A stretch of 64,000 nt of DNA from Candidatus Saccharicenans subterraneus (lineage in GTDB: Bacteria > Acidobacteriota > Aminicenantia > Aminicenantales > Saccharicenantaceae): NCBI GenBank assembly GCA_003426165.1, contig QUAH01000006.1, positions 134,685 through 198,684 on the forward strand, given 5' to 3'. Below, piece after piece: positions 32,801-64,000 of this stretch (positions are counted from its first letter, which is position 1; each line of letters begins with the position of its first letter). A program made the translations under genes and the position numbers. The notes beneath the pieces are model-generated. The model was not told the DNA's origin. It saw only the letters and a program-made list of their open reading frames with translations, and made no database searches.

Positions 32801-33955
32801 CAGCTTGTGGAAAATAAAGGGCTTGAAGAGCTCCAGGGCCATCTTCTTGGGGAGACCGCACTGGTGCAGTTTCAGTTCCGGTCCGACCACGATCACCGAG
32901 CGCCCGGAGTAATCGACCCTCTTGCCGAGCAGGTTCTGGCGGAACCTTCCCTGCTTGCCGCGGAGGGCTTCGCTCAGAGACTTCAGCGGGCGACGGTTGG
33001 CCCCGAGATGCACCCGGCCGCGGCGGCCGTTATCGAACAGGGCATCGACCGCTTCCTGCAGCATTCTCTTTTCGTTCCTGATGATCAGCTCGGGAGCCTT
33101 GAGCTCGATCAGTTTTTTCAGGCGGTTATTGCGGTTGATGACCCGGCGGTACAGGTCGTTAAGGTCGGAGGTAGCAAAGCGGCCGCCGTCCAGTCGCACT
33201 AGCGGCCTCAGGTCGGGCGGGATGACCGGAATCACATCCAGGATCATCCACTCCGGACGGTTACCGGATTTTTTCAGGCCCTTGAAGACCCTCAACCGCT
33301 TGGCGTAGCGCAACCTCTTCTGCTGGGAATGCTCCTTCTTCATGGCACGGCGGAGCTTCTCGGTTTCCTTGTCGATGTCAATTTTTTCCAGCAGTTTTTT
33401 GATGGACTCGGCGCCCATCCCGACTTCAAACTTGTTCCCCCACTTTTCGCGGGCCTCCCGGTATTCCTCCTCGTTGAGCAGCTGCTTTTCCTTGAGGTTG
33501 GTATCACCGGGGTCGAGCACGATATAGGACTCAAAATAGAGGACCTTTTCCAGTTCTTTGATGGTCATGTCCAGGATCAGGCCGATCCGGCTGGGCGGGC
33601 TCTTGAAAAACCAGATGTGGGCCACGGGGGAGGCCAGCTGGATGTGTCCCATTCTCTCGCGGCGAACCTTGGACTTGGTAACTTCAACCCCGCATCTTTC
33701 GCAGATGATGCCCTTGTACTTCATCCGCTTGTACTTGCCGCACAGACACTCGTAATCGTTGATCGGGCCGAAAATCTTGGCACAGAACAGGCCGTCCTTT
33801 TCTGGCTTGAAAGTCCGGTAGTTGATAGTCTCCGGCTTGGTGACTTCTCCCCAGGACCAGCTCTTTATTTTCTCAGGAGAGGCAATGCTGATTCTGACCC
33901 GGTCGAAATCAATCTTAGGCCTCGGAGTTAAAGCTTGCCTTATCTCCATCATCAA
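29804..33955 (-). CDS. rpoC: DNA-directed RNA polymerase beta-prime subunit
   Basis: N-terminal zinc finger [34 protein letters not shown] catalytic motif. 1383 aa. Overlaps the rpoB stop by 4 nt. Confidence 0.97.
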
Positions 33956-36900
33956 TCTCCTTTGGTTGACTGGGGTATGGAAATGCCCCAGGGCAACGCT
34001 TCCTCTTTCTCGCCCTTAAGCAATTCAATGTTAAGGGACAATCCCTGTAGCTCACGGATGAGCACGTTGACCGACTCCGGCAGCCCGGGCTGGAAATCAA
34101 GGTCACCCTTGACGATGGCCTCATAAATCTTGGCCCGGCCTTCCACGTCGTCGGATTTCACGGTCAGGATTTCCTGCAGGGTGTAGGCAGCTCCGTAAGC
34201 TTCCAGGGCCCAGACTTCCATCTCCCCAAACCTCTGGCCGCCGAACTGGGCCTTGCCGCCCAGGGGCTGCTGGGTGATCAGGGAGTAAGGACCGGTGGAA
34301 CGGGCATGAATCTTGTCGTCCACCAGGTGGTAAAGCTTCATCATGTAGATGTAGCCGACGGTGACTTCCTGGTCAAACGGTTGCCCGGTCAGTCCATCGT
34401 ACAGCCGGACCTTGCCCGTTTCCGGCAAGCCGGCCTTCCTCAGCAATTCCTTGATCTCTTCTTCCTTGGCCCCGTCAAAAACCGGTGAGCTCAGCCACAG
34501 GTTCATTTTGCGGGCAGCCCAGCCGGCATGAGTCTCCAGGATCTGGCCCAGGTTCATACGGGAGGGAACGCCCAGGGGGTTGAGCACGATGTCCACCGGC
34601 GTTCCGTCCGGCAGGCGGGGCATGTCCTCTTCCGGAACTATCTTGGCGATAACGCCCTTGTTGCCGTGCCGCCCGGACATCTTGTCGCCGACCGACAGCC
34701 GTCTCTTCATGGCAATGAAGACCTTGATGGCCTGGATGACACCCGGAGAAAGCTCGTCGCCTTTCTTCAGGGTATCAACCTTCTCCTTGAACTCGGCCTT
34801 CAGGGCATCAATTTGCCGCTTGACCTTGCGGTCCAGGTCCCTGATCTTCTCATCCCGTTCGGCATCGGCCGGGAGCTTCAACTCCTCCAGGTCTTTCAGG
34901 TCGTCAAATTCCAGTATTTCCAGCAGCTTCTCGGTGAGCTTGGTACCCTTTTCTATGGTCCGCCCGTTGAGCTTGGCATTCTTGCCGACCACCTCGCCCT
35001 TGATCAGGTTCTTGATGCGGCGCCACTTTTCTTTTTCCAGGATTTCGATCTCATCTTCCAGGTTCCGCTTCATCTTGGCGATTTCTTCTTTTTCTATGGT
35101 CTTGGCCCGCTCGTTCTTTTCCTGGCCGCGCCTGGTGAAAATCCGGACATCGATTACCGTGCCCTCCACCCCGGGAGGACAGTACAGGGACGCATCCTTG
35201 ACGTCCAGCGCCTTTTCGCCAAAGATAGCCTTGAGCAGTTTCTCTTCGGGTGAGAGCTGGGTTTCACCCTTGGGGGCCACCTTGCCCACCAGGATATCGC
35301 CCGGCTTCACGTAGGCTCCGATCCTGACGATTCCGGTCTCATCCAGGTTGCGGAGCAGATTCTCCGAGACGTTGGGTATGTCGCGGGTGATTTCCTCGGG
35401 ACCGAGCTTGGTATCCCGGGCCTCTATCATTTCTTCCACGATATGAATCGAAGTGAAAACGTCTTCTTTTATCAACTTTTCGCTGACGATGATGGCATCC
35501 TCGAAGTTGTAGCCGCGCCAGGGCATGAAGGCACAGAGTATATTCCGGCCGAGAGCCATCTCCCCGCGGTCGGTGCAGGAACCGTCGGCCAGGATCTGGC
35601 CCTTGACCACGCGGTCTCCTTTCCGGACGATGGGTCTCTGGTTGATGCAGGTATTCTGGTTGGTCCGGAGGAACTTGGTCAGAAGGTAAAGGTCGGTGCC
35701 CAGGTCGTACAGGCTGTTTTCCTTTTCGTCAACCCTGACTATGATTCTTTCGGCATCGACAAATTCCACGACGCCGGAGCGCTCGCAGACCACCACGTCC
35801 CCGGACCCCTTGGCCACGATATGCTCGATGCCGGTTCCGATCAACGGGGCCTCCGGCTTTAGCAACGGCACCGCCTGGCGTTGCATGTTGGAACCCATCA
35901 GGGCCCGGTTGGCGTCGTCGTGCTCCAGGAAGGGAATCAGGGCGGCCGAGAGGGACACCAGCTGCTTGGGCGAAACGTCCATGAAATCAATTTCTTCCCG
36001 TGGCAGGATCCTGAAGTTGCCGCGGTCGCGGGCGCTGACCATTTCCTGCTTGATGTAGCCCCGGGAATCGATCTCCACGTTGGCCTGGGCGATCTTGTAA
36101 TTCTCTTCCTCCCAGGCGGTCAGGTAGAAAATATAAGGTTCATATACGGGCAGGTTCTTGGCTTTTTCTTCCTGTAGCCGGTTGACAGCTTTCTCCATTT
36201 CATCCTTGCGAACCAGCTGCCCCGGGCGGAAGCTGGTAGCCCCGGGGTGGATGACCTTGACATAATCCACCACCCGGCCTTTTTCCACCTTGCGATACGG
36301 AGTTTCTATGAAACCGTATTCATTTATCCTGGCATAGCAGCTAAGAGAGGCAATGAGACCAATGTTGGGACCTTCCGGGGTCTCGATCGGGCAGATTCTG
36401 CCGTAGTGCGAGGTCTGAATATCCCTGACCTCGAACCCGGCCCTTTCCCGGCTTAAACCGCCGGGTCCCAGAGCGCTTAACCTTCTCTTATGGGTCAGTT
36501 CGGCCAGGGTGTTAATCTGGTCCATGAACTGCGAAAGCTGGGAGCTACCAAAGAACTCTTTCAGGGCGGCGATGACCGGCTTGGAATTTATCAGGTCCTG
36601 GGGCATGGCCGAGGACAGGTCGGCGCTGATGGTCATTTTTTCCTTGATGGTCCGTTCCATTCGGGTCAGACCGATCCGGAAAGCGTTTTCCATCAACTCG
36701 CCCACCGGGCGGACCCGGCGGTTACCCAGGTGGTCGATGTCATCAACGGAGCCCTCACCGTTTTTCAACTTGAGCAGGTACTTGATCACCTGCACGTAAT
36801 CTTCCTTGGACAGTATTCGGTCTTTCGGGTCTTCCGGACCGGATTTCCTTTCGGTCTCCAGCAGGACGTCGCGCTGACCGCTGTCCAGACCGAGCTTGAT

Positions 36901-38289
36901 GTTGAATTTCAGGCGGCCAATCCTGGAGAAATTGAACTTCTGCGGGTTGAAAAACATGTTGTCAAAAAGGGCCTTGGCGCTTTCTTCGGTGTGCGGTTCT
37001 CCCGGCCTGAGCTTCTTGTAGATTTCACTCAGGGCCTGTTGCTGGTCCTTCTTCAGGTCCTTCTTCAGGGTGTTCAGGATCATCTGGGCGGCTTCATCTT
37101 CACCCGGGAAGAAGACCTCGAAAGGCTCGCCCCTGCTGGTCAGGATTTCCAGATGCTCGGCAGTCAGCTCCTCGCCGGACTTGACCTTCCCGCGGACGTT
37201 AACCAGAGAATAGGCCCCGTTGAGGTCCTGCCTGGTGGCCTTGATCCTGGTGACATTCTTTTCCCGCAGCTTGTTGATTAATTCCTGGTCCAGCCTGGTC
37301 CCGGCTTTGGCTACCGGAGACCTGGAGCTCTCGGGGCTGTAGACATCCTCGCGCAGAACCTTGCCCTCCAGGCTGTCGGTGAGTTTCCAGTACAGCTTCC
37401 CGTCCTCCGGAATCAGCTCGTAAGATTTGAAAAACAGCCGGATGATCTCCTCGTCCGAGCCGTAACCAAGGGCTCGCAGAAAGACAGTGGCCAGGAACTT
37501 CTTTTTCCGGTCCAGCCTGACCCAGAGGATGTTCTTGACATCATTTTCGAATTCCACCCAGGCTCCGCGGTAGGGAATGACCTTGCCCACGAACTGGCCT
37601 TTGATCTCTCCGGGCCGGAAAAATACCCCGGGTGACCTCTGCAACTGGCTGACCACCACCCTTTCCACTCCATTAAATATAAAGGTACCCTTGTCTGTCA
37701 TCAGCGGGATATTCCCGAAATAGACTTCCTGCTGCTTGATATGCTTCAGCCGACGGGTCTTGGTGGCCGGGTCTTTTTCCCAGGAAACAAGCTGAACTTT
37801 TAACTTCAGCGGGGCCTCGTAGGTGTACCCTTTCTGGATGCACTCCAGGGGGCTGTACTTTATTTTCAACCTGACCCTGTCCCCGCAGTACTCGCAGAGA
37901 GGCATCTCGATCTTCCTGTGCTCCCCGCAATAAGGACAGACTCTCTTTTCCTGAAGAGCTACCTCGGAAGGAAGCAACGCCCCGCACGACTGGCAGCGCG
38001 GCCGGGAGTTTTCCACGCCCTTCAGGCGGCCGCACCTGCATTCCCAATCGCCGATGGTGTAGCTGATAAATTGCAGCTCGGTGGTTTCCTTGAAATCGGT
38101 AATGGGAAAGACATCCTTGAAGGCGGCCTGCAGGCCCACATCCTTTCTCTCATCCGGCAACAGGTCCATCTGCAGGAACTCGTCGTAAGACTTTCGCTGA
38201 ATTTCGAGAAGGTCGGGCAGTTCAAAGACCGTCTTGATTTTAGAAAAATCGACTCTTTCCCGATAGATATGATGGTTTTGATCAAGCAT
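33952..38289 (-). CDS. rpoB: DNA-directed RNA polymerase beta subunit (1445 aa, with N-proximal double CxxC zinc-ribbon insertion)
   Basis: Conserved rif-region and catalytic-region segments. Insertion around aa 78-150 containing CRCG...CQSCG and CPYCG...CEYCG. Confidence 0.96.
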
Positions 38290-41248: not shown

Positions 41249-41325
41249 TGGCGGGTGAGGCAGGACTCGAACCCGCAGCCTGCGGTTTTGGAGACCGCTG
41301 CTCTAGCCAATTGAGCTACTCACCC
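41249..41325 (-). tRNA. tRNA-Trp (anticodon CCA), CCA end encoded
   Basis: Manual fold of the reverse strand. Acceptor GGGTGAG/CTCACCC. Anticodon stem-loop GCGGT-CTCCAAA-ACCGC. T-arm GCGGG-TTCGAGT-CCTGC. Confidence 0.88.
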
Positions 41326-41341
41326 TCAGTCCGGTCAGTCA

Positions 41342-41491
41342 TTATTTAACTTCTTTGTGAAGAGTATGCTTGCGACAGAACGGGCAGAACTTCTTGATTT
41401 CCAGCCGTTCCGTCTGCTTCTTCTTGTTTCTGGTGGTAGTGTAATTCCGTCGCTTACAATCCGAGCACTGAAGAGTAATTATTTCCCGCAT
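41342..41491 (-). CDS. rpmG: 50S ribosomal protein L33 (zinc-ribbon C+ form)
   Basis: Manual translation gives [49 protein letters not shown] (49 aa). Not in the ORF track. Confidence 0.9.
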
Positions 41492-41541
41492 CTCGCTATT
41501 TCCTTAATGCTTAGTTCAACTAACAGCCGGGGAATGCAGTT

Positions 41542-42744
<1,203 letters not shown>

Positions 42745-42784
42745 CTCTTTTACCTCCTAGGAGCCAGGCAAAAATTTTTATAAA

Positions 42785-42857
42785 AGCCCAAGACCAGATT
42801 TGAACTGGTGACCCCGTCCTTACCAAGGACGTGCTCTGCCAACTGAGCTACTTGGGC
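42785..42857 (-). tRNA. tRNA-Thr (anticodon GGT)
   Basis: Reverse strand GCCCAAGTAGCTCAGTTGGCAGAGCACGTCCTTGGTAAGGACG...CTTGGGCT. Anticodon loop TTGGTAA. Confidence 0.88.
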
Positions 42858-42876
42858 TTAACTTCATTTCTTAGAA

Positions 42877-42949
<73 letters not shown>

Positions 42950-42957
42950 ATCAAAAA

Positions 42958-43040
42958 TGGGCAGGGAAGGATTCGAACCTCCGAAGCGTTTCCGCAGCGG
43001 GTTTACAGCCCGCCCCATTTGGCCACTTTGGTACCTGCCC
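42958..43040 (-). tRNA. tRNA-Tyr (anticodon GTA), long variable arm
   Basis: Reverse strand GGGCAGGTACCAAAGTGGCCAAATGGGGCGGGCTGTAAACCCGC...CCTGCCCA. Anticodon loop CTGTAAA. Confidence 0.85.
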
Positions 43041-43083
43041 ATACCAGTCTTCCCTATCAGGCCAGGCCTGCTCTCTATTTCTG

Positions 43084-43156
43084 AGCCAGCGAAGGGATTC
43101 GAACCCCCGACCCGCTGATTACAAATCAGCTGCTCTACCGGCTGAGCTACGCTGGC
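43084..43156 (-). tRNA. tRNA-Thr (anticodon TGT)
   Basis: Reverse strand GCCAGCGTAGCTCAGCCGGTAGAGCAGCTGATTTGTAATCAGC...CGCTGGCT. Anticodon loop TTGTAAT. Confidence 0.88.
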
Positions 43157-51886: not shown

Positions 51887-52324
51887 ATGAACTTGGATAA
51901 GGCTGCGGCTGTCATCGAAGTTGCCAGCGAGCTCGGAGAAATTGAAGCCATCAAGAATTTCCTGGACCAAAATCTCCAGGCCCTGCCGGTAACCGAGGAA
52001 GAACATTTCCAGATCGAGCTGGCCCTGATTGAAATCTGCCTCAACATAATCCATTACGCCTACCCTGAAAACAGGGGCACAATCCAGGTAAGATTCTGGA
52101 CCGAGGGACCGCAGGTTTTCCTGGAGATTAGAGATAGCGGCGTACCTTTCGACCCCTCACAGTCGCCTACCCCGGACATAGAAGAGATCATCCGCAAAAG
52201 AAAAAAGGGCGGGCTGGGCATTTACCTCAGCCGGGAGTTGATGGACGGATTTTCCTATCGCCGGGATGGCGGACAGAACATTCTGCTGATGCACAAAAGG
52301 TTGTCCGCGGCCGAGGCTAACTGA
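51887..52324 (+). CDS. Anti-sigma regulatory factor / Ser-protein kinase of the RsbW/SpoIIAB type (HATPase_c fold)
   Basis: 145 aa. N-box-like ELALIEICLNIIHYAY. G-box GGLGIYLSRELMDGF. Confidence 0.65.
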   Translation: MNLDKAAAVIEVASELGEIEAIKNFLDQNLQALPVTEEEHFQIELALIEICLNIIHYAYPENRGTIQVRFWTEGPQVFLEIRDSGVPFDPSQSPTPDIEEIIRKRKKGGLGIYLSRELMDGFSYRRDGGQNILLMHKRLSAAEAN

Positions 52325-53152
52325 TCAGTACAGGACCGCGGCCTCGCCCTTTTCCTGGATGAGCTTATCTATGGCCTGAAGGATGAGCTCCTTCCGGGCC
52401 AGGACGGCGTTGATCTCATCATCAGTCAGGTACTCTCCGACGATACCTTTAATTAACTCAAAATTCAGGGCTTTTATTTTTTCCACGAAGGCCCGGGGCA
52501 GCTCGCTCATCGGCTTCGGACCCTCCCGGTGTTTTTCGGAGTAAATCAGGTTCTGGGTGAATTTTTTCCCGGTGCGGAAAGACCGAGAATGGTCAATCAG
52601 TATCATCCGCCAGTCGGCGGTTATCAAGATGTTGTTCATGTGGCGGTCTTCGTTGCCGATCAGGTTGTCAAAGGCCCTCTGCAGGTAAACGGCCCGGTTC
52701 CAGTTCATCAGCTTGATGGGTGGAGTCTTGATATTTTTCTCGGTCTTTTGTTTTAGGGTCATCTGGTAGTCAACCCAGATCTGGCAGGAACCACGGTTGT
52801 TATGAAACCTTCTTTCCACCGTGGGCGGGACCATGTTCAATTCCAGGTAATTATCCATCAGGTAAGCCGCTATTTCGTATTTCCAGCCTTCCACGAAACC
52901 CTTCAGGCGGCCTTCCGGGTTCTTCCAGAGAGCATTCCTGGTGATCCCGTCCTTTTCCAGGGTCAGTTTCCAGGGGCTGGTGACGGACTCCGGGCCGATT
53001 AGCTGCTCTTCATTGACAATGTTGGCCGTCCGCAAAAATTCTTCCCACCTGGCTCGCTCGGCCACCTCGTCCGGCGTGAACTGAGGAAATAACGGCAGGA
53101 AAAGAAGCAAGGCCACCGAAACCACGAAAAAGCCATAAAACTTTCTTCCCAT
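52325..53152 (-). CDS. Secreted PI3/PI4-kinase-fold protein, type II PI4-kinase-like, paralog 1
   Basis: Signal peptide. ALWKNPEG (Lys region), YLMDNYLELNMVPPTV, GSCQIWVDY, catalytic loop IGNEDRHMNNIL and activation segment ILIDHSRSF align with PI4KII motifs (AVFKPKNEEP, LVDQKLELNIVPRT, GSFQLFVEGY, IRNTDRGNDNWLI, AIDNGLAF). GAGGAGGG RBS. Confidence 0.6.
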   Translation of the reverse strand: MGRKFYGFFVVSVALLLFLPLFPQFTPDEVAERARWEEFLRTANIVNEEQLIGPESVTSPWKLTLEKDGITRNALWKNPEGRLKGFVEGWKYEIAAYLMDNYLELNMVPPTVERRFHNNRGSCQIWVDYQMTLKQKTEKNIKTPPIKLMNWNRAVYLQRAFDNLIGNEDRHMNNILITADWRMILIDHSRSFRTGKKFTQNLIYSEKHREGPKPMSELPRAFVEKIKALNFELIKGIVGEYLTDDEINAVLARKELILQAIDKLIQEKGEAAVLY

Positions 53153-53161
53153 ATTCCCTCC

Positions 53162-53995
53162 TCAATAAAGGACCTTGCCCTCGCCCACGACTTTGATCAT
53201 CTCGTCTATTTCCTTAAGTATTAAATCTTTGCGGGCCAGGACGGCCCTGATTTCTTTATCGGTCAGGTATGGCCCAACGGCCTGTTTGATGCTGTCAAAG
53301 GTCAGGGCCTTGATATTCTCCACCAGTTGCCTAGGCAATTTTCTGAAAGGCAGGGCCCGGCTATCAGCTCTTAACGGGTTTAGACCGAACAGGAGGTGCT
53401 TGGTATATTTTTCTTCTGACCGGAAGCTCCGGGAGTGGTCGATTAGTATGGTCCTCCAGTCCTTGGTATATAAGGTATTTTGCTGGGTGCGGTCCTCGTT
53501 GGCGATCAGGGCATCAAACACCCGGGAAATATATTTTCTCTTCTCCCAGTTATCGGCTTCCGGCCCGCTCGATGGCAGGGGGATATTCTTTTCCATCACC
53601 TGCAGCAGGCTGTATTCTTTCTCCACCCAGAGTTGCAGGGAGCCTCTCTGGCCCCTGAATACCCTCTCCACCGTTGGCGGGATCATGTTCAAGCCCAGCA
53701 GCTTGTCCAGCCGGTAGGCGGCAATTTCATACTGCCAGCCCTCGAGGAAGCCGCCCTGAATTCCGCTGGGGTTCTTCCAGACTCCGCTTCTTTCAACATC
53801 ACCTTTTTTGAGGAAAAGGCGAACCGGCTTGGTTACCCCCTCACCTATCTCTTTATAATCTATTATCTCCGCGGTCAGCAGAAATTCTTCCAGTTCCTCC
53901 CTCTGAGCTATTTCTTCTGGCCTAAACTGTGAAGACAGGGGCAGGTTCAGAACCAAGAGCAATAAACCAACGGCCAAAATCGCACTCTTTCTCAT
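53162..53995 (-). CDS. Secreted PI3/PI4-kinase-fold protein, type II PI4-kinase-like, paralog 2
   Basis: Signal peptide. GVWKNPSG, YRLDKLLGLNMIPPTV, GSLQLWVE, IANEDRTQQNTL, ILIDHSRSF. AAGGAG RBS. Confidence 0.6.
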   Translation of the reverse strand: MRKSAILAVGLLLLVLNLPLSSQFRPEEIAQREELEEFLLTAEIIDYKEIGEGVTKPVRLFLKKGDVERSGVWKNPSGIQGGFLEGWQYEIAAYRLDKLLGLNMIPPTVERVFRGQRGSLQLWVEKEYSLLQVMEKNIPLPSSGPEADNWEKRKYISRVFDALIANEDRTQQNTLYTKDWRTILIDHSRSFRSEEKYTKHLLFGLNPLRADSRALPFRKLPRQLVENIKALTFDSIKQAVGPYLTDKEIRAVLARKDLILKEIDEMIKVVGEGKVLY

Positions 53996-54007
53996 TTCCC
54001 CGACTCC

Positions 54008-54853
54008 TTAATATAAGACTTCCCCCCGGCCATAGGCAGAAATCATCTCCTCGATTTCCTTCAGGATCAGGTCGCGGCGGGCCAGCACAGAATTTATCTC
54101 CCTGGTGGTCAGATAGGAACCCACCGCCTGCCTGATGCTATCAAAGGTCAGGGCCTTCAATCTTTCCACAAATTCGGCTGGCAATCGTTTGAACGGCAGT
54201 GGAATTCCGCCCGGGCGCAGGGGCCGCAGCCCGTACATAAGGTTGTTAGTAAAACGGGCATCGGACCTGAAACTGCGGGAGTGGTCAATAAGTATGGTCC
54301 GCCAGTCTTCAGTGAGCAGGGTATTCTGCAGGCTCCGGTCTTCGTTGGCAATCAGAGAATCAAAGGCCCGGGTCAGATACTGCATCCTTTCCAGGTTAAC
54401 CGCCTCCCACCCCTCCTTTGGCAACTGGATTTTATTATCGACAATTTCCAGAAGGTCGTACTTGTGTTCCACCCAGAGCTGTAAAGAGCCGCGCTGACCC
54501 TGGAACCTCCTTTCCACCGTGGGCGGGATGAGGTTTAAGCCAAGCAACTTATCCAGGCGGTAGGCGGCAATTTCATACTGCCAGCCCTCGTAGTAACCGT
54601 TGATTACTCCGCTCGGGTTCTTCCAGACGGCAGTCAGCTCTGTATCTCCCTTTTTCAAGTAAACCCGAATGGGCAGAGTGATGCCTTTGCCCAGGTCCCG
54701 AAAGCCGGTTATTCTCGCCTTCAGAAGGAATTCTTCCTGTTCGCCCCGCCGGGCTATTTCATCCGTTGTGAACTGGGCGCGGGAACTCGAAAATGACAAT
54801 AACAGAACAAAAGTGGCGGTTAGCAAGTTCCTGGCAGCCGTTTTTAACTGCAA
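54008..54853 (-). CDS. Secreted PI3/PI4-kinase-fold protein, type II PI4-kinase-like, paralog 3 (TTG start)
   Basis: Signal peptide. AVWKNPSG, YRLDKLLGLNLIPPTV, GSLQLWVE, IANEDRSLQNTL, ILIDHSRSF. GGGGA RBS before the TTG. Confidence 0.58.
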   Translation of the reverse strand: MQLKTAARNLLTATFVLLLSFSSSRAQFTTDEIARRGEQEEFLLKARITGFRDLGKGITLPIRVYLKKGDTELTAVWKNPSGVINGYYEGWQYEIAAYRLDKLLGLNLIPPTVERRFQGQRGSLQLWVEHKYDLLEIVDNKIQLPKEGWEAVNLERMQYLTRAFDSLIANEDRSLQNTLLTEDWRTILIDHSRSFRSDARFTNNLMYGLRPLRPGGIPLPFKRLPAEFVERLKALTFDSIRQAVGSYLTTREINSVLARRDLILKEIEEMISAYGRGEVLY

Positions 54854-54973: not shown

Positions 54974-55837
54974 GTGAAAGAGGGCGAACCAATGAAAAAA
55001 CTGTTACTTCTGCTTTCGTTTCTGGTATTTCTTTCTGGCTGTTCTTCTGACCGGTACGCTCCCACCATCCGCTTTCCTTACAAATGGCCGGGCACCCCGG
55101 GTTTTGGCGGCAATATCGATCAGCAAAACATACCCGAGCCTTCGGGTCTGTGCTTCCATCCGCAGCGAAAGACTCTATTTGTGGTCAGCGACGAGGGCTG
55201 GCTTTACGAAATAACAACTGACGGAGCTCCAATTTTCAGCCAGCGGATTCCGGGCGACCTGGAAGCCATTGCCATCAACCCCAGGACGGGCCTGGTTTAC
55301 GTTGTAATTGAAGGAGATGATATCATCCTTGAATATGACCCGGATCGGCACGAGGTTACCCGTAGATTCCCGGTCAACAGAGCCTTCAACGGCGACCTGA
55401 ACTTTCTGCAAAAACAGGTCGAGGAATACGACAACGGCCTGGAGGCGCTGGCTTTTGTCCCGGATGAAAAGCATCCCGAAGGCGGGACCTTTTATGCCGG
55501 GAACCAATGGGACCCGCCCTGTATAGTTGAAATCGAAGTCCCCCTGAAATCAAGCCAGGCCCGGGAGGCCGAAGCCAGAATTATCAGGGTCCTGCCTTTC
55601 AAAATAGACGACCCCGCAGCCATGATTTACGACGAGGAAACCAGGCTTCTGCATATAGGCAGCGATGCCGATAATATCCTGGTTGAGATAACACTCGACG
55701 GGAAACTGGTAAGAGAATACGCCTTTCCAGGCGATAACCAGGAAGGTCTGGCCTGGGATGATAAGGGATACCTTTATATAGCGCAGGACTCAGGGGGCAT
55801 AATAAAAATCCAGGACCTGAGGAAAAAACGATCCTGA
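54974..55837 (+). CDS. YjiK / SdiA-regulated-family beta-propeller lipoprotein
   Basis: Lipobox LSGC. EPSGLCFHP..KTLFVVSDEG, DLEAIAIN, NGLEALAFVP, EGLAWDDKGYLYIA repeats resembling the YjiK family. Confidence 0.5.
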   Translation: MKEGEPMKKLLLLLSFLVFLSGCSSDRYAPTIRFPYKWPGTPGFGGNIDQQNIPEPSGLCFHPQRKTLFVVSDEGWLYEITTDGAPIFSQRIPGDLEAIAINPRTGLVYVVIEGDDIILEYDPDRHEVTRRFPVNRAFNGDLNFLQKQVEEYDNGLEALAFVPDEKHPEGGTFYAGNQWDPPCIVEIEVPLKSSQAREAEARIIRVLPFKIDDPAAMIYDEETRLLHIGSDADNILVEITLDGKLVREYAFPGDNQEGLAWDDKGYLYIAQDSGGIIKIQDLRKKRS

Positions 55838-55870: not shown

Positions 55871-57274
55871 TCAGGACCTTTCCGACTGTGTCCTTGCCCT
55901 CAGTTTTTTATATTCGCGGATTATAAGAAAACACAGGGATATCCAGATCAACACTCCCAGGATATTAACCCGGGCGAACTTTTCCACGCCAAAGGCCAGG
56001 TAAGTCGTGCCCAGAAAAATTCCCAGGGCGGCAATCACATCCCCTCCCCTGACAAAAAAGGTGTCGATGGCCGCCTTGGCTTTATATTTTTCTTCCCTGG
56101 AAGTAATCAGAAAGAGGGCATGCTTGGTGGTGTTCATCAGCGAATAGTCGGTGCCGTTTTCCAGGGCCTTAACCCACTTGATCAAAAGGAGTGAGGCCCC
56201 GACCGCGATAAACCCATAACCACCCAGGGCGATAAAAGGAAAAATAAGAAGAGCCCCGCCCACGCCAATCCACCTGAAAATCCGCGAAACCAGAAAAAGC
56301 TGCAGCACCAGGGCAATCAGGTTGGTCAGCAACTGGTACTCGGCAAAAAATTTCCCTATATATTCTTTCAAATCCAGGCCGCCGGCCAGGCCCGCCGCCA
56401 CGGCCTGGGTGGCCGTTCGGGTTACCACGTTGCTCAGTATGTATTCTCCGGTGGCATTTATGAAATTATAAAGACCGATGACCAGGGCAATCAATAGAAG
56501 GTAGCGGCTCTTGAAAACCAGGCGGAACCCCCCGCCTTTTTTGAGTGGCTTTTCCTGTTCAATTTTCTTTTGCTCCAGCTCGACCGGGGACAGCCCCACC
56601 CTCACGATATGTTGCAACTCTCTCTTGTGAATATGAATGGCCAGCAGGATGCATAAGCCCAGAATGGCGGCCGAAACCAGCATCAGGCTGTAAAGGCCAA
56701 TGGGCCTGATCAACCAGCCTGCTAACCGGCTGCCGAAAACGGCCCCGGAAGTAGCCCCGAAAGCAATCAATGGAAACAGCCTCCGGCCTTCCTCATCAGA
56801 ATACAGGTCGTTGGCAAAACCCCAGAACTGGGCCGGAACCAGCAGGTTATAGATTCCGATCCAGATGAAAAAGATGATGCCCATAGTTCCGAGAGGAATG
56901 CCCACCATACTTAGAATATAGAAAATTATCAGGTTGGAGATAAAGAACAGAGTTACCCAGGTTATCAACAGATGTCTGGGAACCCGGGAAGCCAGGTAGC
57001 TGAAGGCTTTAATCACCAGTATAAGCAAAATGGCCTGGGCTCCGGCCAGGTAACTTTTTATTTCCGCCCCTTTGCCGGCCAGAATCAGCGCGTCCCGGAC
57101 GGGTTTGATTATGTAATAGGCCAGCAGCAACAGGAAGATATTAAAGGTCAGCAGCAAGGCCTTGGAAGCCTCTCCCGGCCTGATATCGGTAAAGAGCCTG
57201 AGCAGCCGGTAACCGGGAGGGCAGGCTCGCTCAGAGTCACTTTTCTGTTTCGGGTCTGGGCCAACCTCTTTCAT
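55871..57274 (-). CDS. TLC-family nucleotide (ATP/ADP) translocase homolog, about 12 TM
   Basis: Polytopic membrane protein. N-terminal ...LLTFNIFLLLLAYYIIKPVRDALIL... Signature GTDYSLMNTTKHALFLITSREEKYKAKAAIDTFFVRGGD resembles the conserved KVKGKAAIDV region of Tlc/NTT transporters. Confidence 0.55.
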   Translation of the reverse strand: MKEVGPDPKQKSDSERACPPGYRLLRLFTDIRPGEASKALLLTFNIFLLLLAYYIIKPVRDALILAGKGAEIKSYLAGAQAILLILVIKAFSYLASRVPRHLLITWVTLFFISNLIIFYILSMVGIPLGTMGIIFFIWIGIYNLLVPAQFWGFANDLYSDEEGRRLFPLIAFGATSGAVFGSRLAGWLIRPIGLYSLMLVSAAILGLCILLAIHIHKRELQHIVRVGLSPVELEQKKIEQEKPLKKGGGFRLVFKSRYLLLIALVIGLYNFINATGEYILSNVVTRTATQAVAAGLAGGLDLKEYIGKFFAEYQLLTNLIALVLQLFLVSRIFRWIGVGGALLIFPFIALGGYGFIAVGASLLLIKWVKALENGTDYSLMNTTKHALFLITSREEKYKAKAAIDTFFVRGGDVIAALGIFLGTTYLAFGVEKFARVNILGVLIWISLCFLIIREYKKLRARTQSERS

Positions 57275-57285: not shown

Positions 57286-58101
57286 TTAATTTTTCTTCCT
57301 GGTAAACAGGATGGCTTCCTCGCCCTGTTCTTCTATCAATTTCTTTATTGCGGCTATTATAAGATCCTTCCTTTCGAGCAACGCTTCTATTTCCTGTTCG
57401 CTAAGGTAAGGCTTGAGTTTGTTGGTCAGCAGCCCGGGGTCCAGCCGGCTCAGGCTGTTAAACAATTCCCTGGAGCACCTGCGGATTGGACAGTCCGTAA
57501 GCAGCTCCGGAACCGGGGCGAAACTTTCAGAAAAATCAATTCGCCAGACCTGCCAGGTGTTCATGCTTATCAGGATGTCGTCCTGGTCCAGGCACTGGTC
57601 ATAAACCAGATTCTCGAAAACCACCACTTCGGCCAGGGCCTGCTGGAAAGCTTCTTCATCCGGCGGATTCAGTCCTTTCCTCTGCCGCTGGGCTTCGGTT
57701 ATTACCCCGGTCAGCATGACCTGCAGGGAACCGCTGCGGCCATCCAGCTTTCTGACCACCACAGGCGGCATGAGCTCCAGGTCGAGCAGCTTATTCAGCT
57801 CATAAGCAGCCAGCTCATAGAAATAGCTGTCCGGGATCATGGCCGGTCGGGGCCGGTGGACGTACTTAAAAATGGCCCGCCCTTTCATCCGTCCATCATC
57901 CAGGCTGACAACCCAGGGAGCAGTCCGGCCGCCGGCCTGTCCCTTGCTGACCCTGACCACCCTGGCCTTACTCAGGAAATTCTCCAACTGTTCCCGCTCC
58001 TTCTGATCACCAAATAAGTAATCTGAGGCAACCATAAAAAACCCCCAGACCATGGCCATCATTACCAGCCCTGTCTTAAATAAATTTTTATTATTTTCCA
58101 T
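57286..58101 (-). CDS. Secreted/anchored PI3/PI4-kinase-fold protein, type II PI4-kinase-like, divergent paralog 4
   Basis: Shares N-terminal REQLENFL, AIFKYVHRP (Lys), YELNKLLDLELMPPVV, GSLQVMLTG and ...RIDFSESF with paralogs 1-3. The catalytic loop is degenerate (CLDQDDILISMN). Start placed at the internal ATG at 58101 with a GGGGGA RBS. The track start at 58134 would overlap the upstream gene by 44 nt. Confidence 0.5.
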   Translation of the reverse strand: MENNKNLFKTGLVMMAMVWGFFMVASDYLFGDQKEREQLENFLSKARVVRVSKGQAGGRTAPWVVSLDDGRMKGRAIFKYVHRPRPAMIPDSYFYELAAYELNKLLDLELMPPVVVRKLDGRSGSLQVMLTGVITEAQRQRKGLNPPDEEAFQQALAEVVVFENLVYDQCLDQDDILISMNTWQVWRIDFSESFAPVPELLTDCPIRRCSRELFNSLSRLDPGLLTNKLKPYLSEQEIEALLERKDLIIAAIKKLIEEQGEEAILFTRKKN

Positions 58102-59143
58102 GGTTAATCCCCCACAGGGAGAACTGGCCGTCATTTATGATCAGAGCCCTCATATGACCGCCGTAGGCCCGGGAGATTCCTGTATCAACGATCCAGATCT
58201 TCCCCCCGAATCTTCTCATATCATTGATGGTCAGGACCAGGCGAGGAGTATGGGCCACTATGATCTGCCTGGCCTCCAGGTTATTCAGGATACGGTCAAC
58301 CTGTTCCTCTGAAACGCTGCCATTGGCCAGGGCCAGCTCCCGGTACCAGAGAGGCCCGTTGCTCCTGTAGACAATTTCCAGTTTCATATCAGTCGGAGGC
58401 GACAGGTTCAGAATCGCTTTCTGAAAGACCGAGAGTTCATACCGGAGCCTGTTGTTTATGTCTTCAAGTTTCCACTTTGAGAATTCTTCGCTTATACCAC
58501 CGTGAACGAAGACGGTGTCATTAATCTTTATGACAGCATTCTTACGGGCAATCCATTTTCCGTATTTCTGGTTAAAATTGATCAGGTATTTTTGCCTGGC
58601 TTCCTGGTCAAAATCTATTACTTCCTGCCAGAGGCGTCTGATATCCCTCCCCCTCCTGGCCTTCTTTTCCAGCTCTTTCTGCTTCCTGGCCAGGTAATCC
58701 TCTGGAAGAAACGAGATAAACTGCTCAACGGTAACATAATCCTCATAATCGAAGGCGATCCCGGTGATGTTCATTTCTTCGTGATTGCCGATCAACATCT
58801 GCACCTGACCGCCGGCAGCTTCGGCCTCCGTTTCCAGCTTGCGAATTAAGTCAAAGATCTTGCGGGCATCGGGACCGCGGTCCAGGACATCTCCGGTCTG
58901 AACCAGAAAAGCCTGTCCACCCTTCCAGCTCAAGCTGGAATCAACCAGTCCTACCCCCTTCAGTATCTCGACAAAATGCTCGTAATCGCCGTGCAGGTCC
59001 CCGACCACCACGATCTTTTCCACCCCGCTCCAGCGGCAGGGAATTTGCTCGGCGGGAAGAACAGGCCGGGTCAGCCAGACCAGCCAAAGCAGTAAATAGA
59101 GAACCTTCTGGCCAGCCCTTTTTCTCTGGAAGATTTTATTCAT
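58091..59143 (-). CDS. Secreted PPP-family metallophosphatase (calcineurin-like / ApaH-like Ser/Thr phosphatase fold)
   Basis: Signal peptide. GDLHGD, GDVLDRG, GNHE signature triplet. Confidence 0.7.
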   Translation of the reverse strand: MNKIFQRKRAGQKVLYLLLWLVWLTRPVLPAEQIPCRWSGVEKIVVVGDLHGDYEHFVEILKGVGLVDSSLSWKGGQAFLVQTGDVLDRGPDARKIFDLIRKLETEAEAAGGQVQMLIGNHEEMNITGIAFDYEDYVTVEQFISFLPEDYLARKQKELEKKARRGRDIRRLWQEVIDFDQEARQKYLINFNQKYGKWIARKNAVIKINDTVFVHGGISEEFSKWKLEDINNRLRYELSVFQKAILNLSPPTDMKLEIVYRSNGPLWYRELALANGSVSEEQVDRILNNLEARQIIVAHTPRLVLTINDMRRFGGKIWIVDTGISRAYGGHMRALIINDGQFSLWGINHGK

Positions 59144-59685: not shown

Positions 59686-60033
59686 GTGAAAATATCAACC
59701 AGAGAAATTAACGACATTCTGATCGTCGACATCGAGGGAGAAATCAGGAGGTCAGACATCACCGACATGACCCTCCATCAATGGATCAAGCAGCAACTGG
59801 AAAGGGGCAAAAGGAAAATCTTGCTCAACTTCGAAAAGGTAGAATTCATCGACAGCTTCGGCGTGGGCGAAATCCTGGCCAGTTACATCTCGGCCAACAA
59901 CCTCGGCGGTAAGCTGAAGCTGGTCAGGATTTCCAAGAAGCTCTACCTGATCTTCCAGGTAACCATGCTGACCAGGGTGCTGGAAATATATGACGACGAA
60001 CAGGTGGCCCTGGAGAGCTTTTTCAAAGAGTGA
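59686..60033 (+). CDS. STAS-domain anti-sigma-factor antagonist (SpoIIAA/RsbV-like)
   Basis: 115 aa. ILIVDIEGEI..., conserved IDSFGVGEIL (phosphorylatable Ser region). Confidence 0.7.
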   Translation: MKISTREINDILIVDIEGEIRRSDITDMTLHQWIKQQLERGKRKILLNFEKVEFIDSFGVGEILASYISANNLGGKLKLVRISKKLYLIFQVTMLTRVLEIYDDEQVALESFFKE

Positions 60034-60061: not shown

Positions 60062-62539
60062 TTGACAGATGAACCCAGCCGGCTCCACGGGTTCCTTTCC
60101 CGCCTGGTGGAGATCAAGCCGGGAGAGGAAAGAATTACCCTTTTACTTTTCTTCTATTTTTTCCTGATCACTGCCGCCTACTCGATCATAAAATCCCTGA
60201 GGGTGGCCAGCTATCTGGACTCCCTGGGGGCTGATAAACTCCCCCTGGCCTATCTCCTGACCGCCGTGTCGATCGGCCTGGTGGTAGCCATTCATTCCAA
60301 ACTCCAGGCCAGCTTATCCAGGTTAAACCTTATAATTTTCAGCCTGGCCTTTTTCATCCTGACGGCGGTGTTATTCTGGCTGCTGTTCAGCCTCGGCTGG
60401 GCCTGGCTATCCCTGGCTTATTACATCTGGGCCAATATATTTCTGGCCGTGGTCATCACCCAGTTCTGGATAGTGGTCAACGATATTTTCAACCCCAGGG
60501 AAACCAAGCGCCTGGTGGGCCTTTTCGGAAGCGGCGGTATCCTGGGGGGCATCCTGGGAGGCGAAGCTACCGGACTCATGGCCAGGGCCAGTGTTGATAC
60601 CAGACTTCTTTTTCTGGCCTGCGGTTTTCTGCTTCTAACCATTGTTGTGGTCTACCTGATAGCTGACTGGCAAAAGAGATCGGGCCGGGGACCTTCTCAA
60701 GACTCCACAGAATCCACCCAACAGAACGGGAAGACCGAGCGGGTGGGATTCAGGGAGTGCCTGCGGACTGTTATCGGACAGCGTTACTTCCGGCTGCTGG
60801 CCGGCGGCATAGCCCTGAGCCTGATAGTCTCCACCTTTATCGACTGGCAGTTCAGCAAGGTGGTCGAAGGAACAGCCAGCCTTGGAGACAGACTGACCTC
60901 GTTCTTCGGGCATTTCAATGCCGGCCTGCTGGTGGTAGCCTTTTTCATTCAACTTTTCCTTACCAGCCGGTTTGTCCAGAAATTCGGGATCAGGTTTTCT
61001 TTCCTTATCTATCCTTCAGTCCTGATCATAGTTCTGACCGGGTTAACCGCGCTGCCAGCCAGCCTGCTGATGGCCCTGACTCTGAAGGCCTCTGATAAGA
61101 GTCTTTCCTATACCCTGAATCAATCCGTCAGGGAACTGCTCTACATCCCGGTTTCCCCCGAGGTCAAATACAAGGCCAAGATCTTCATTGACATGTTCCT
61201 CAACCGCTTTGCCAAGGGGCTGGGAGGGGTCCTGCTGATGGCCCTTCTCTACTTCAGCCTCAATCTTCGTTTTATCAGCCTGGTGACCATCCTGTTGATC
61301 CTGGGCTGGATGGCGGTCAATCTCCAGGTCACCAGGGAATACGCGGCCGTGGTCAGGAATAAATTAAAAAAGAAGTGGGACCGGGCCGAAAAGGCAGTGG
61401 CCGAGCAACTGGACCTGGACTACCTGAAACTGGCCTTTGACACCCTGGACACTCGCCGGCGAAGCCGGGAACTTCTGGCCATGGACATATTTGACCTCAT
61501 GAAGCAAGATAAACTCCGCCCTGAATTAAAAGAGCTGCTTACCTCAAACCTTTCTGAACCCGGGGTTTCCTCGCTCGGTACCCTGTTTGAAGAAGAAGCC
61601 CTGGCCCTGTCTGAATGGCCCGCGGGTGAGAACGAAGACCTCCTTAAAAAGGAAGTGGATGAAATTCTGTCCCTGGAAGCCTACCAGGAACTTATAAAGG
61701 AATATATCCGAAGAGTCGTGGCGGATAAGAAGCCCGGCACAGAAATTATGAGGATGGAAGCAGCCAAGCTCTTCAGCCTGATGCCAGCGAACTTCGTGCC
61801 GGCCGAGGAACTGGCCGAGTTACTCGGGGATGAATCGCCAGAGGTCAGCCGCCTGGCCATGGACAGCGCTGCCCGGTCCGGGCAGAAGGAACACCTAGAA
61901 ACCATCATCAGAAAACTGAAGGATCCGGTGACCAGAGAGGACGCCGTCTCGGCCCTTCTAACCTTCGGCTCCAAAATTACCGGCACTCTGTCGGATTACC
62001 TCGAAGTCGAGGAACTGGACCTTGAGGTCAAGAAGGCCATAATAAACGTTCTCTCGCGGATGGCCACCCAGGAAGCCGCCGACCTGCTGGCCCTCGAGCT
62101 TCAGAAAAATCAGCCGGAGCTTGATGGGGAACTGATTGAGGCCCTGGACAGGATTCATCATCTTAAACCCGAAATATCAATCCCGGCAGAAATCTCAAGG
62201 AAGAAATTAAAAGAGGAAATAGAGAGGCATTGTCAGCTATTGCTGGCAACGCTGGATAGCCAAGGGCCACTTGGGGAGGAAGCAGAAAAAGAGCTGGTCC
62301 GGTCCCAGTCGGATATTTTCAAATTACTCGGGTTTCTCTATCCCGGGGATGACATCAGCCGGGCCTGGCAGAATTTCCGGACCGGAACCAAAGACTCCAG
62401 AGCCTACGCCCTCGAACTCCTCGATAATATTCTGATTAAATCCGACCGGGAGATGGTTCTGCCGCTGCTGGAAGATCTGCCACCCTCGGACCGGTTAAAA
62501 AGAGTTCGAACCCTGCTTGATGAATTGGGAAAAACATAG
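60062..62539 (+). CDS. TLC-family nucleotide translocase homolog fused to C-terminal HEAT/PBS-lyase-like repeat domain (825 aa, TTG start)
   Basis: N-terminal 430 aa polytopic, with SDKSLSYTLNQSVRELLYIPVSPEVKYKAKIFIDMF (TLC signature region) paralogous to the 55871-57274 protein. The C-terminal 390 aa consist of repeated LLxDxxPxVRxxAxxAL-type alpha-helical repeats. Confidence 0.55.
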   Translation: MTDEPSRLHGFLSRLVEIKPGEERITLLLFFYFFLITAAYSIIKSLRVASYLDSLGADKLPLAYLLTAVSIGLVVAIHSKLQASLSRLNLIIFSLAFFILTAVLFWLLFSLGWAWLSLAYYIWANIFLAVVITQFWIVVNDIFNPRETKRLVGLFGSGGILGGILGGEATGLMARASVDTRLLFLACGFLLLTIVVVYLIADWQKRSGRGPSQDSTESTQQNGKTERVGFRECLRTVIGQRYFRLLAGGIALSLIVSTFIDWQFSKVVEGTASLGDRLTSFFGHFNAGLLVVAFFIQLFLTSRFVQKFGIRFSFLIYPSVLIIVLTGLTALPASLLMALTLKASDKSLSYTLNQSVRELLYIPVSPEVKYKAKIFIDMFLNRFAKGLGGVLLMALLYFSLNLRFISLVTILLILGWMAVNLQVTREYAAVVRNKLKKKWDRAEKAVAEQLDLDYLKLAFDTLDTRRRSRELLAMDIFDLMKQDKLRPELKELLTSNLSEPGVSSLGTLFEEEALALSEWPAGENEDLLKKEVDEILSLEAYQELIKEYIRRVVADKKPGTEIMRMEAAKLFSLMPANFVPAEELAELLGDESPEVSRLAMDSAARSGQKEHLETIIRKLKDPVTREDAVSALLTFGSKITGTLSDYLEVEELDLEVKKAIINVLSRMATQEAADLLALELQKNQPELDGELIEALDRIHHLKPEISIPAEISRKKLKEEIERHCQLLLATLDSQGPLGEEAEKELVRSQSDIFKLLGFLYPGDDISRAWQNFRTGTKDSRAYALELLDNILIKSDREMVLPLLEDLPPSDRLKRVRTLLDELGKT

Positions 62540-62548: not shown

Positions 62549-64000
62549 ATGAGCCAGAACAGAACATATCGCCTGCTATCTCGGCTGGTGGATATCAGAC
62601 CGGAAGAAGTCACCCCTTCTTTGCTGATGTTCTTTTATTTTTTTCTTATTCAGGTTTCTGCTTACATCATTGAGCCCGTAAAGATTTCACTTTACCTGAG
62701 ATGGCTGACCGCCGACCGCCTCCCCTATGCCTACCTGCTGTCGGCCCTGTTGATCGGGCTGGCCGTAGCCTTCAATTCCGAGTTACTCCAGAGAATCAGG
62801 AGATCATATTACCTGGCCTTTAGTCTGCTGTTTTTCATTTCGACCCTGATTCTCTTCTGGTTTCTCTTTCGGATTCACTGGCCCTGGCTGTCGCTGATCT
62901 ACTGGTTCTGGTCCGACCTGTTCATGGTTACCACCACCACCCAGTTCTGGATCATGGTCAATGACCTTTACCATCCGCACCAGGCCAAGCGACTCATTGG
63001 CTTCCTGGTCAGTGGTGGCCTGCTGGGAGGCGTGAGCGGAGCCCTGCTGGCCTCGCGCCTGGCCAGGCACCTCGGCACGGAAAATCTTCTTCTGATCTGC
63101 CCGGTTCTTCTGCTGTTCTGCCTGGTCATCATCTATTTTTATGCCAGGCTGCCAGGCAAGGAAGAGAAACAGTCCACCGCCTCTGGCGCCAGGAGCTCTC
63201 CCCTGGCCACCTGGCGGGAAATCCGGTCCAGCCGTTACCTGTCCCTTCTGGCGGCCATCGTAGCCCTGGGCATGATCATAACCACCCTGGTGGACTTTCA
63301 GTTTGTTTCGGTAGTTGGTTCAAGATTTACCGAACAGGACGCCAGGACCTCTTTCCTGGGCAGTTTTCTGACAGTCCTTCTGGTTTTTTCCTATCTTCTT
63401 CACGTGACCATGACGACCAGGATTTTAAGGCAGTCCGGCCTCCGGCTGGCCCTGCTCATCGCTCCCGCTTTCCTGCTACTAAGCTCGCTGGCCATCTTCT
63501 TTGTTCCGGCCACCTATTTGATTTACTGGGCGGTCCTTATCAAAGGAACCGACAAGAGTCTAAGCTATTCACTCAACCAATCGGTCCGGGAATTACTTTA
63601 CGTCCCGGTCTCGCCGGAAATTAAGTACCGGGCCAAAGTTTTCATCGACATGTTTGTTTCCAAGTTTGCCAAGGGCTTTAGCTCCATCATTCTTCTGGTC
63701 GGTTTCACTCTTCTGCATTTCAACCTCAAGCAGATAAGCCTGGTTACCGTTGCCTTCATCATTCTCTGGTTTATGTTCAACCTGGAAATTGCCCGTGAAT
63801 ACGTTAATACCGTCAAGAAAAACTTAAAAATAAAATGGCAGGATGCCCACCTGGTTATCAATGAGAAGATCGACCTAGACCTGACCAAGCTGGTCTTTGA
63901 TACCCTGGAGAGCAAGAAGCGAAGCTCCGTTCTCTATGCCATGAACCTGATGAACCTGCTGAAGACCGAGAAATTGAGCCCTGAACTGAAAGAGATAATA
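62549..64000 (+). CDS. Second TLC-family translocase homolog (HEAT-fusion paralog), 3' end truncated by the window edge
   Basis: MSQNRTYRLLSRLVDIRPEEV... parallels the N-terminus of the preceding gene. TDKSLSYSLNQSVRELLYVPVSPEIKYRAKVFIDMF signature. No stop before the window end. Confidence 0.5.
   Translation, partial: MSQNRTYRLLSRLVDIRPEEVTPSLLMFFYFFLIQVSAYIIEPVKISLYLRWLTADRLPYAYLLSALLIGLAVAFNSELLQRIRRSYYLAFSLLFFISTLILFWFLFRIHWPWLSLIYWFWSDLFMVTTTTQFWIMVNDLYHPHQAKRLIGFLVSGGLLGGVSGALLASRLARHLGTENLLLICPVLLLFCLVIIYFYARLPGKEEKQSTASGARSSPLATWREIRSSRYLSLLAAIVALGMIITTLVDFQFVSVVGSRFTEQDARTSFLGSFLTVLLVFSYLLHVTMTTRILRQSGLRLALLIAPAFLLLSSLAIFFVPATYLIYWAVLIKGTDKSLSYSLNQSVRELLYVPVSPEIKYRAKVFIDMFVSKFAKGFSSIILLVGFTLLHFNLKQISLVTVAFIILWFMFNLEIAREYVNTVKKNLKIKWQDAHLVINEKIDLDLTKLVFDTLESKKRSSVLYAMNLMNLLKTEKLSPELKEII

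Follow-up and report, generated by a model that had tools for sequence, protein, structure and literature searches.

The stretch of DNA analysed here, 64,000 nucleotides of contig QUAH01000006.1 from Candidatus Saccharicenans subterraneus (positions 134,685 to 198,684; hereafter the window), encodes a tandem of three kinase-like proteins with predicted export signals, here designated K1, K2 and K3, together with a more divergent paralog, K4, and thereby raises the question of what kinases might do outside the cytoplasm of a bacterium. The bacterial periplasm is usually taught as ATP-free, and ATP-dependent kinases are unexpected there. We find that these proteins, which resemble each other far beyond chance, belong to a large bacterial kinase family with tight and ancient ties to an exported protein-phosphatase homolog (MPE) and to a nucleotide-exchanger homolog of the NTT/TLC family, as seen in gene fusions, synteny and operon structure. 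The cluster suggests that phosphorylation driven by ATP takes place outside the cytoplasm, without proving it. We found no earlier description of the family or of the module in the literature searched on bacterial Fam20-like kinases, periplasmic kinases and ATP, SCO1664/TIGR03843 and kinase-NTT coupling.

A first-pass annotation of this DNA had reported three adjacent paralogs of 275–281 amino acids (aa) at 52325–54853, and these coordinates are exact in the list of open reading frames (ORFs). Only 9 bp separate K1 from K2 and 12 bp K2 from K3, and the proteins share 47–60% pairwise identity in the alignment (60% for K2 and K3). The blocks WKNPxG, LNM(V/I)PPTVER, GS(C/L)Q(I/L)WV, (G/A)NEDRxxxN and ILIDHSRSF are common to all three, as are an N-terminal hydrophobic segment followed by QF(T/R)(P/T)(D/E)E, an EEFL stretch and a C-terminal VLY. 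Every shared motif listed by the annotation can be found in the alignment apart from its ending GE(A/G)xVLY, since K3 terminates in GRGEVLY, and the Lys, Asp and Asn equivalents that it had assigned are indeed present in K1–K3. Each element expected of a bilobal protein-kinase-like fold was identified, namely a beta3 Lys, an alpha-C Glu, the catalytic-loop Asp and Asn and a metal-binding Asp. For K2 we predict K74, E90, D168, N173 and D186 as the catalytic residues, and these positions are nearly invariant across active-type homologs. The ratio of nonsynonymous to synonymous substitution rates (dN/dS) against the closest ortholog is 0.07 for K1 and 0.10 for K3, and the values for K1–K4 together (0.07–0.15) indicate purifying selection. 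K3 is a recent duplicate of K2, because it is present only in the five closest loci (L001–L005).

The family to which these proteins belong is extensive. An exhaustive profile search covering 1.84 billion representatives recovered 4,810 clusters (50% identity) at E<=1e-3, including 724 at E<=1e-30, with Aminicenantes, other Acidobacteriota and Latescibacteria as named sources. The consensus consists of the blocks x-A-x-F-(K/R), SYxxE-AAYEL, VPPTVER..GSLQ, FDNLIxN-DRN-GN and W-IDH(S/T)RAF, and the catalytic constellation of Lys, Glu, Asp-x5-Asn and a DFG-like Asp is kept across thousands of clusters. By a hydrophobicity heuristic, a Sec-like N-terminus, basic and then hydrophobic, is present in 114 of 120 K2-type sequences, in 92 of 113 of the divergent type and in 117 of 149 representatives of the family. 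K1, K2, K3 and K4 each carry such a segment, in agreement with the Sec signal peptides proposed in the annotation, and K3 has an AxA-like cleavage site between SRA and QF.

Among solved structures, the family is placed between the animal Fam20 secretory-pathway kinases and the type II phosphatidylinositol 4-kinases (PI4KII). In the Foldseek ranking PI4KII-alpha led (E 1.3e-6), with PI3K/Vps34 and PI4KII-beta next. A 4-sequence profile matched only Fam20B, Fam20A and Fam20C, a 150-sequence profile matched Fam20A (1e-7) and PI4KII-beta (4e-3), and a profile of the divergent branch matched Fam20A (1.6e-13), Fam20C (7e-9), Fam20B (1e-7), PI4KII-beta (2.4e-3) and PI4KII-alpha (7e-3) and nothing else. 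Because the sequence profiles settle the order, Fam20 is the closer relative. The catalytic loop, N-x-D-R-x-x-x-N, is of the PI3/PI4-kinase type and aligns opposite the DRHHYE of Fam20B and Fam20A. The likeness to type II PI4-kinases on which the first-pass annotation was built is therefore genuine in fold, profiles and loop, although by sequence profiles it comes second to Fam20, and the Foldseek comparison that it called for does give a PI4-kinase as first hit.

Curated families give a weaker picture. The annotation had pointed to PF00454 (PI3_PI4_kinase), which K1 passes only just (27.2 bits against a threshold of 27.1) over profile positions 142–197 of 241, that is, the catalytic loop, whereas K2 (17.5 bits) and K3 (15.9 bits) fall short and K4 has no match; some distant relatives bear a precomputed match to this model. 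The Pfam Fam20C model (PF06702) scores K1 at 17.6 and K2 at 18.3 bits, below its threshold of 26.8, with no match for K3 or K4, and matches to HipA_2, one of the other explanations the annotation had considered, and to ABC1 are also sub-threshold. TIGR03843, the SCO1664 family of actinobacterial hypothetical proteins, is the best curated bacterial match: its alignment spans nearly the whole domain (E ~1e-12 for K1–K3, 1e-5 for K4), yet the scores of 43–47 bits for K1–K3 (45 for K1) and 25 for K4 lie far from the cut-off of 172.4. By the thresholds of these families, K1–K4 are not members of the Fam20 or SCO1664 families, and only K1, by 0.1 bit, reaches that of PI3_PI4_kinase. Uncharacterised themselves, the SCO1664 proteins are linked to mshC (PMC4255298), among the mycothiol genes, whereas K1–K3 are associated with MPE and NTT genes. 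Neither the secreted Ser/Thr kinase CtkA of Helicobacter pylori nor the actin-fragmin kinase of Physarum gave a sequence-profile match to the K1–K3 family.

Two further sequences came to light in these comparisons. P0161 (671 aa) has two tandem kinase-like domains and passes the Pfam thresholds of both Fam20C (29.4 bits) and HipA_2; it may be useful as a bridge sequence for phylogeny. FAM198 is another secretory-pathway kinase-like family, to which K3 has a faint match, and a 275-aa neighbour in a divergent-branch locus (L082, 15776–16603), probably another paralog, bears a weak precomputed match to the same family.

The fourth paralog differs from the others at the positions that matter most for catalysis. 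The annotation had noticed a more degenerate copy at 57286–58101, which is real and was given the right start: the longest ORF opens at 58134, and we place the start at 58101, Met12 of that ORF, because a stop codon precedes this Met in the ortholog of locus L002. K4 shares 25–28% identity with K1–K3 and keeps the Lys (FK), an alpha-C-like Glu and the DFG-like Asp (IDFSESF), with YDQCLDQD in place of NEDRxxxN. Its orthologous lineage comprises 38 clusters with identities down to 42%. In every one of them the DFG-like Asp (VDFSEAF) is present along with the Lys and the alpha-C Glu; the catalytic loop reads D-x-C-x-D-x-x-D or similar, without the catalytic Asp, its Arg or the Asn. The dN/dS of K4, 0.15 with the nearest ortholog and 0.26–0.29 with more distant ones, compares with 0.04–0.13 for K1–K3 and still denotes purifying selection. 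An independent structure model of K4 has a pLDDT (predicted local distance difference test) of 90.0 and yields an order of relatives other than that from Foldseek. On its sequence, K4 appears to be a maintained paralog that is non-catalytic or differently catalytic.

K4 is encoded in an operon that begins with MPE, whose stop it overlaps, and continues with the transporter gene TLC467 11 bp after K4 (Table 1). MPE has a signal-like N-terminus and the motifs GDxHG, GDxxDRG and GNHE together with a metallophosphoesterase domain, as expected of the PPP family. Its best match is the cold-active protein-tyrosine phosphatase of Shewanella (1v73/2z72, E 6e-33), and a weak similarity to ApaH-type nucleotide pyrophosphatases (E 2e-6) was also detected. 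It resembles the Shelph PPP phosphatases in these motifs and differs from them in being coupled genomically, and elsewhere fused, to a Fam20/PI4KII-like kinase domain.

TLC467 matches the TIGR00769 superfamily (E 8e-17), and its solved relatives are ATP/ADP carriers only, the NTT structures 9j3n (E 1.4e-6) and 9j3j, whose FWGFAN and K.KAAID blocks are conserved in TLC467 at the level of motifs. Its dN/dS is 0.11. TLC467, the second transporter NTT-HEAT825 and the TLC-HEAT proteins encoded beside kinases elsewhere all score above the Pfam TLC threshold and retain the NTT blocks. Characterised NTTs all import nucleotides into parasites or plastids, and the window transporters score far below the TIGR00769 cut-off. 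NTT-HEAT proteins are widespread in free-living bacteria, where their function is unknown and no kinase link is mentioned (PMC5381601), and in the literature searched we found no proposal connecting NTTs with exported kinases or with ATP export.

Table 1. Genes of the kinase cluster and its neighbours (positions within the window)
Feature	Coordinates	Strand	Description
K1	52325..53152	-	Predicted exported Fam20/PI4KII-like atypical kinase; 275 aa; motifs WK, YEIAAY, NEDRHMNN, IDHSRSF intact
K2	53162..53995	-	Predicted exported Fam20/PI4KII-like atypical kinase; 277 aa
K3	54008..54853	-	Predicted exported Fam20/PI4KII-like atypical kinase; 281 aa; TTG start; catalytic motifs intact
K4	57286..58101	-	Predicted exported pseudokinase-type paralog; 271 aa; overlaps MPE stop by 11 bp
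MPE	58091..59143	-	Predicted exported Shelph-type PPP-family phosphatase; 350 aa; GDLHGD, GDVLDRG, GNHE; Pfam Metallophos PF00149 51.4 bits
TLC467	55871..57274	-	Inner-membrane NTT/TLC-family transporter without HEAT domain; 467 aa; Pfam TLC PF03219 60.4 bits (cut-off 21)
NTT-HEAT825	60062..62539	+	Second NTT/TLC-family transporter with C-terminal HEAT repeats; 825 aa; Pfam TLC 68.7 bits, HEAT_2
Third TLC-family paralog	62549..64000	+	Partial, runs off window end; 43% identical to NTT-HEAT825
Lipoprotein	54992..55837	+	SdiA-regulated/phytase-like beta-propeller; PF06977 44.8 bits, PF13449 48.1 bits, LPAM_1
RsbW-like HATPase	51887..52324	+	Anti-sigma-factor-type Ser kinase; Pfam HATPase_c_2 98 bits; RsbW models
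STAS-domain protein	59686..60033	+	RsbV-like; Pfam STAS 48.4 bits; immediately upstream of NTT-HEAT825

The association of kinase, phosphatase and transporter extends well beyond the window. In 80 related genomic loci, searched with the proteins of the window, one gene order, MPE-K4-TLC-(lipoprotein)-K2-K1-(RsbW-like), recurs throughout Aminicenantes at protein identities of only 40–65%, and the K1 ortholog adjoins K2 in most of these loci. Where at least 4 kb of flanking sequence was available, TLC lay within 4 kb in 46 of 62 loci and MPE in 41, with both in 40. A second sample comprised 80 metagenome loci of a branch about 30% identical to K2. Among the 27 of these with enough flank, MPE and TLC were both present in 11, and eight contained ORFs in which MPE is fused to the kinase. 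Fusions of this kind often have a TLC-HEAT gene (~940 aa) within a few bases on their 3' side (e.g. L093, L101, L116, L130), and of ten long family members, nine are single polypeptides that carry a Metallophos domain at the N-terminus and the kinase domain at the C-terminus. In an all-against-all census of neighbouring ORFs, the families that recurred included TLC-HEAT (23 loci) and a sigma-54 activator (7 loci); the same census returned no other large recurrent family beside these and MPE, and no candidate substrate gene. The kinase-MPE-TLC association is strong and frequent, and neither obligatory nor universal.

Several incidental observations concern the same loci. A protein identical to K2 (P0001) is labelled 'metallophosphoesterase' by NCBI, though K2 lacks that domain; probably the label was carried over from phosphoesterase-kinase fusions in related bacteria, an annotation error that masks the family. 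Genes for sigma-54-dependent activators adjoin divergent-branch kinases (L081 5781–7652, L083 4541–5728 and the seven metagenome loci of the census, e.g. L150 1–723), suggesting that, outside Aminicenantes, expression of the family is regulated and may respond to stress or nutrients. In an Acidobacteriota metagenome-assembled genome (L037, 10001–13449) the K2-K1 pair occurs twice in tandem (K2 K1 K2 K1), an expansion of active kinases independent of, and distinct from, the K3 duplication of Saccharicenans.

How might these components work together? To our knowledge, NTT/TLC proteins are the only known bacterial ATP/ADP exchangers. We propose that the exchanger would move cytoplasmic ATP to the periplasmic side against ADP, and that K1, K2 and K3 would use this ATP to phosphorylate substrates of the envelope or cell surface, most likely proteins and possibly glycans. 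MPE would remove the phosphate again and so reverse the modification. K4 may act as a non-catalytic regulator or targeting subunit, much as the pseudokinase Fam20A does with Fam20C; its gene is part of the MPE operon, other bacteria have members of its lineage fused to MPE, and we place it in the MPE-associated branch. Its catalytic activity would have been lost in Aminicenantes, where separate active paralogs exist.

This scheme has a counterpart in animals, with differences. The domain of K1–K4 is about 250 aa long, compared with 350–450 aa in Fam20, and is without the Fam20 insertions; K2 has no cysteine and hence no disulfides; the loop of K1–K3 is DR(H/T/S)xxN (N.DRN.GN in the family consensus) where Fam20 has DRHHYE, and the threshold of the Fam20C model is missed (18 against 26.8 bits). 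The signal sequences of K1–K4 and of the 114 orthologs, as scored by the heuristic, would imply a non-cytosolic compartment, as for Fam20. K4 has lost the catalytic Asp and Asn, whereas Fam20A is altered at other positions. In the animal system, Fam20C carries a signal peptide and has the pseudokinase Fam20A as its activator in a compartment that must import ATP (PMC7948968, PMC5865150). By analogy, the bacterial module can be read as a close parallel to the Fam20C/Fam20A pair, in a family that is bacterial whereas FAM20 has been treated as eukaryote- or Metazoa-specific (PMC9758233).

We hold the descriptive part of this account (homology, fold, catalytic residues, heuristic export signals, purifying selection, operon, synteny and fusion) with high confidence, and regard the whole mechanism, in which exported kinases, MPE, K4 and an NTT/TLC exchanger form an envelope phosphorylation module, as evenly poised between right and wrong. 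Several points weigh against it. Arg replaces Lys at the beta3-like position of many distant family members, and export signals were scored by the hydrophobicity heuristic rather than by a trained predictor. TLC467 is a distant NTT member, with 61.4 bits against a TIGR00769 cut-off of 387, and in comparisons with the kinase-adjacent TLC-HEAT proteins of distant lineages, all at 25–30% identity, NTT-HEAT825 rather than TLC467 is the better full-length match (blastp 244–311 bits, the best found). Three divergent-branch genomic contexts showed one MPE adjacency and zero TLC within 8 kb, so that the kinase-TLC link is frequent but not obligatory. NTTs are also known to transport NAD, SAM and other nucleotides, outer-membrane porins could let a molecule as small as ATP leak out, and PPP phosphatases and metallophosphoesterases are able to hydrolyse non-protein phosphoesters. 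Moreover, the NTTs that have been characterised work by counter-exchange with a bias toward the import of ATP (PamNTT1, PMC1951785). A broader proposition, that free-living diderms run a dedicated cycle of phosphorylation and dephosphorylation beyond the cytoplasmic membrane, fuelled by ATP that NTTs export to the Sec-exported kinases and paired with a Shelph phosphatase and a pseudokinase regulator, and that this family is the prokaryotic stock from which eukaryotic Fam20 and/or PI4KII arose, is considerably more tentative.

A serious alternative, if on balance an unlikely one, retains the exported module and takes its substrate to be a sugar, carried by a polysaccharide or glycoconjugate that is extracellular or part of the envelope. 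Such an activity would be Fam20B-like, since Fam20B phosphorylates xylose in the proteoglycan linker. The deeper profiles, however, score Fam20C and Fam20A equal to or above Fam20B, the associated phosphatase is most like a protein-tyrosine phosphatase, and the neighbour census contains no recurring glycosyltransferase or polysaccharide-export genes beside the kinases. We also think it improbable that the cluster serves to scavenge nucleotides or phosphate, with MPE degrading phosphoesters, the NTT importing the products and the kinase-like domains binding, regulating or using another chemistry such as AMPylation. That all characterised NTTs import nucleotides (PMC5381601, PMC1951785), that MPE weakly resembles nucleotide pyrophosphatases and that pseudokinase-fold enzymes with other chemistries exist (SelO and SidJ, cited within PMC7948968) speak for this possibility. 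Yet the family-wide retention of the catalytic constellation is what phosphotransfer would predict, the match of MPE to a protein phosphatase is better than that to ApaH by many orders of magnitude in E (6e-33 against 2e-6), and scavenging leaves unexplained the upkeep of two or three active kinase paralogs and one inactive one.

The view taken in the annotation, that these are secreted PI4KII-like lipid kinases acting on inositol or other lipids of the envelope or of another cell, seems to us decidedly improbable. The Foldseek ranking and the loop type described above speak for it, but the Fam20 relationship is much stronger and PF00454 fails for three of the four paralogs. PI4KII-alpha carries a Cys-rich palmitoylated membrane-anchoring motif in its kinase domain, and PI4KII enzymes are membrane proteins of the cytosolic face, whereas K1–K4 are predicted to be exported and show no membrane-anchoring element: K2 contains zero cysteines, is without a Cys-rich palmitoylation or membrane-binding insert and, outside its signal peptide, has no hydrophobic segment with a 12-residue hydropathy >1.0. 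Finally, the suggestion that these proteins are secreted toxins or effectors (CtkA- or HipA-like), the effector option of the annotation, or components of anti-phage defence is very hard to sustain, since the locus sits within the core chromosome, with tyrS/purN on one side, housekeeping genes on the other and no mobile elements, its synteny is kept across a whole class of free-living bacteria, it includes no antitoxin, immunity or specialised secretion-system gene, and the PADLOC defence-system models gave no significant match to the window kinases, only matches of 14–15 bits to the catalytic loop; CtkA itself is a strain-specific virulence factor that stands outside any conserved phosphatase/transporter module.

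Other genes surround the proposed envelope phosphorylation module. The lipoprotein gene is oriented divergently (longest ORF from 54974) and encodes a lipobox, LSGC, after MKKLLLLL; it is syntenic in about half of the Aminicenantes loci and absent from divergent loci, and is a lineage-specific accessory gene of the cluster. The RsbW-like gene converges on K1, the two stops abutting, while the STAS gene, an ABM-domain gene, NTT-HEAT825 and the third TLC paralog lie upstream on the plus strand. Pairing of the RsbW-like gene with K1 and of STAS with NTT-HEAT825 is syntenic across Aminicenantes, which hints at partner-switching control of the HEAT-bearing transporter; whether the RsbW-like and STAS genes are members of the module is uncertain. 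Scans for sigma-70 promoters and terminators across 51.7–59.7 kb gave nothing above shuffled expectation. Around the cluster the chromosome is of the ordinary core kind: genes of RNA-polymerase size, a tRNA cluster and genes resembling tyrS and purN. Elsewhere in the window, two 400-aa ORFs of equal length (25271–26473 and 41542–42744, both on the minus strand) are shadowed in antisense by the same 290-aa ORF. The pair flanks the RNA-polymerase-sized genes (29804–38289) and the five-tRNA cluster (41249–43156) and is probably a duplicated elongation-factor gene.

The kinase fold and the idea of secretory kinases were known already; what had not been known is a bacterial counterpart, predicted to be exported, that comes with a phosphatase, a pseudokinase and a putative supply of ATP, and it is this conserved three-part module that makes the locus more interesting than the first-pass annotation had recognised. 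Regulated ATP-dependent phosphorylation in the bacterial envelope would become directly testable with a handful of recombinant proteins. The NTT and NTT-HEAT transporters that free-living bacteria possess would receive a first hypothesis as to their function, the metazoan Fam20 kinases would gain a large set of bacterial relatives, and the family would bear on the origin of secretory-pathway phosphorylation and of the type II PI4-kinases.

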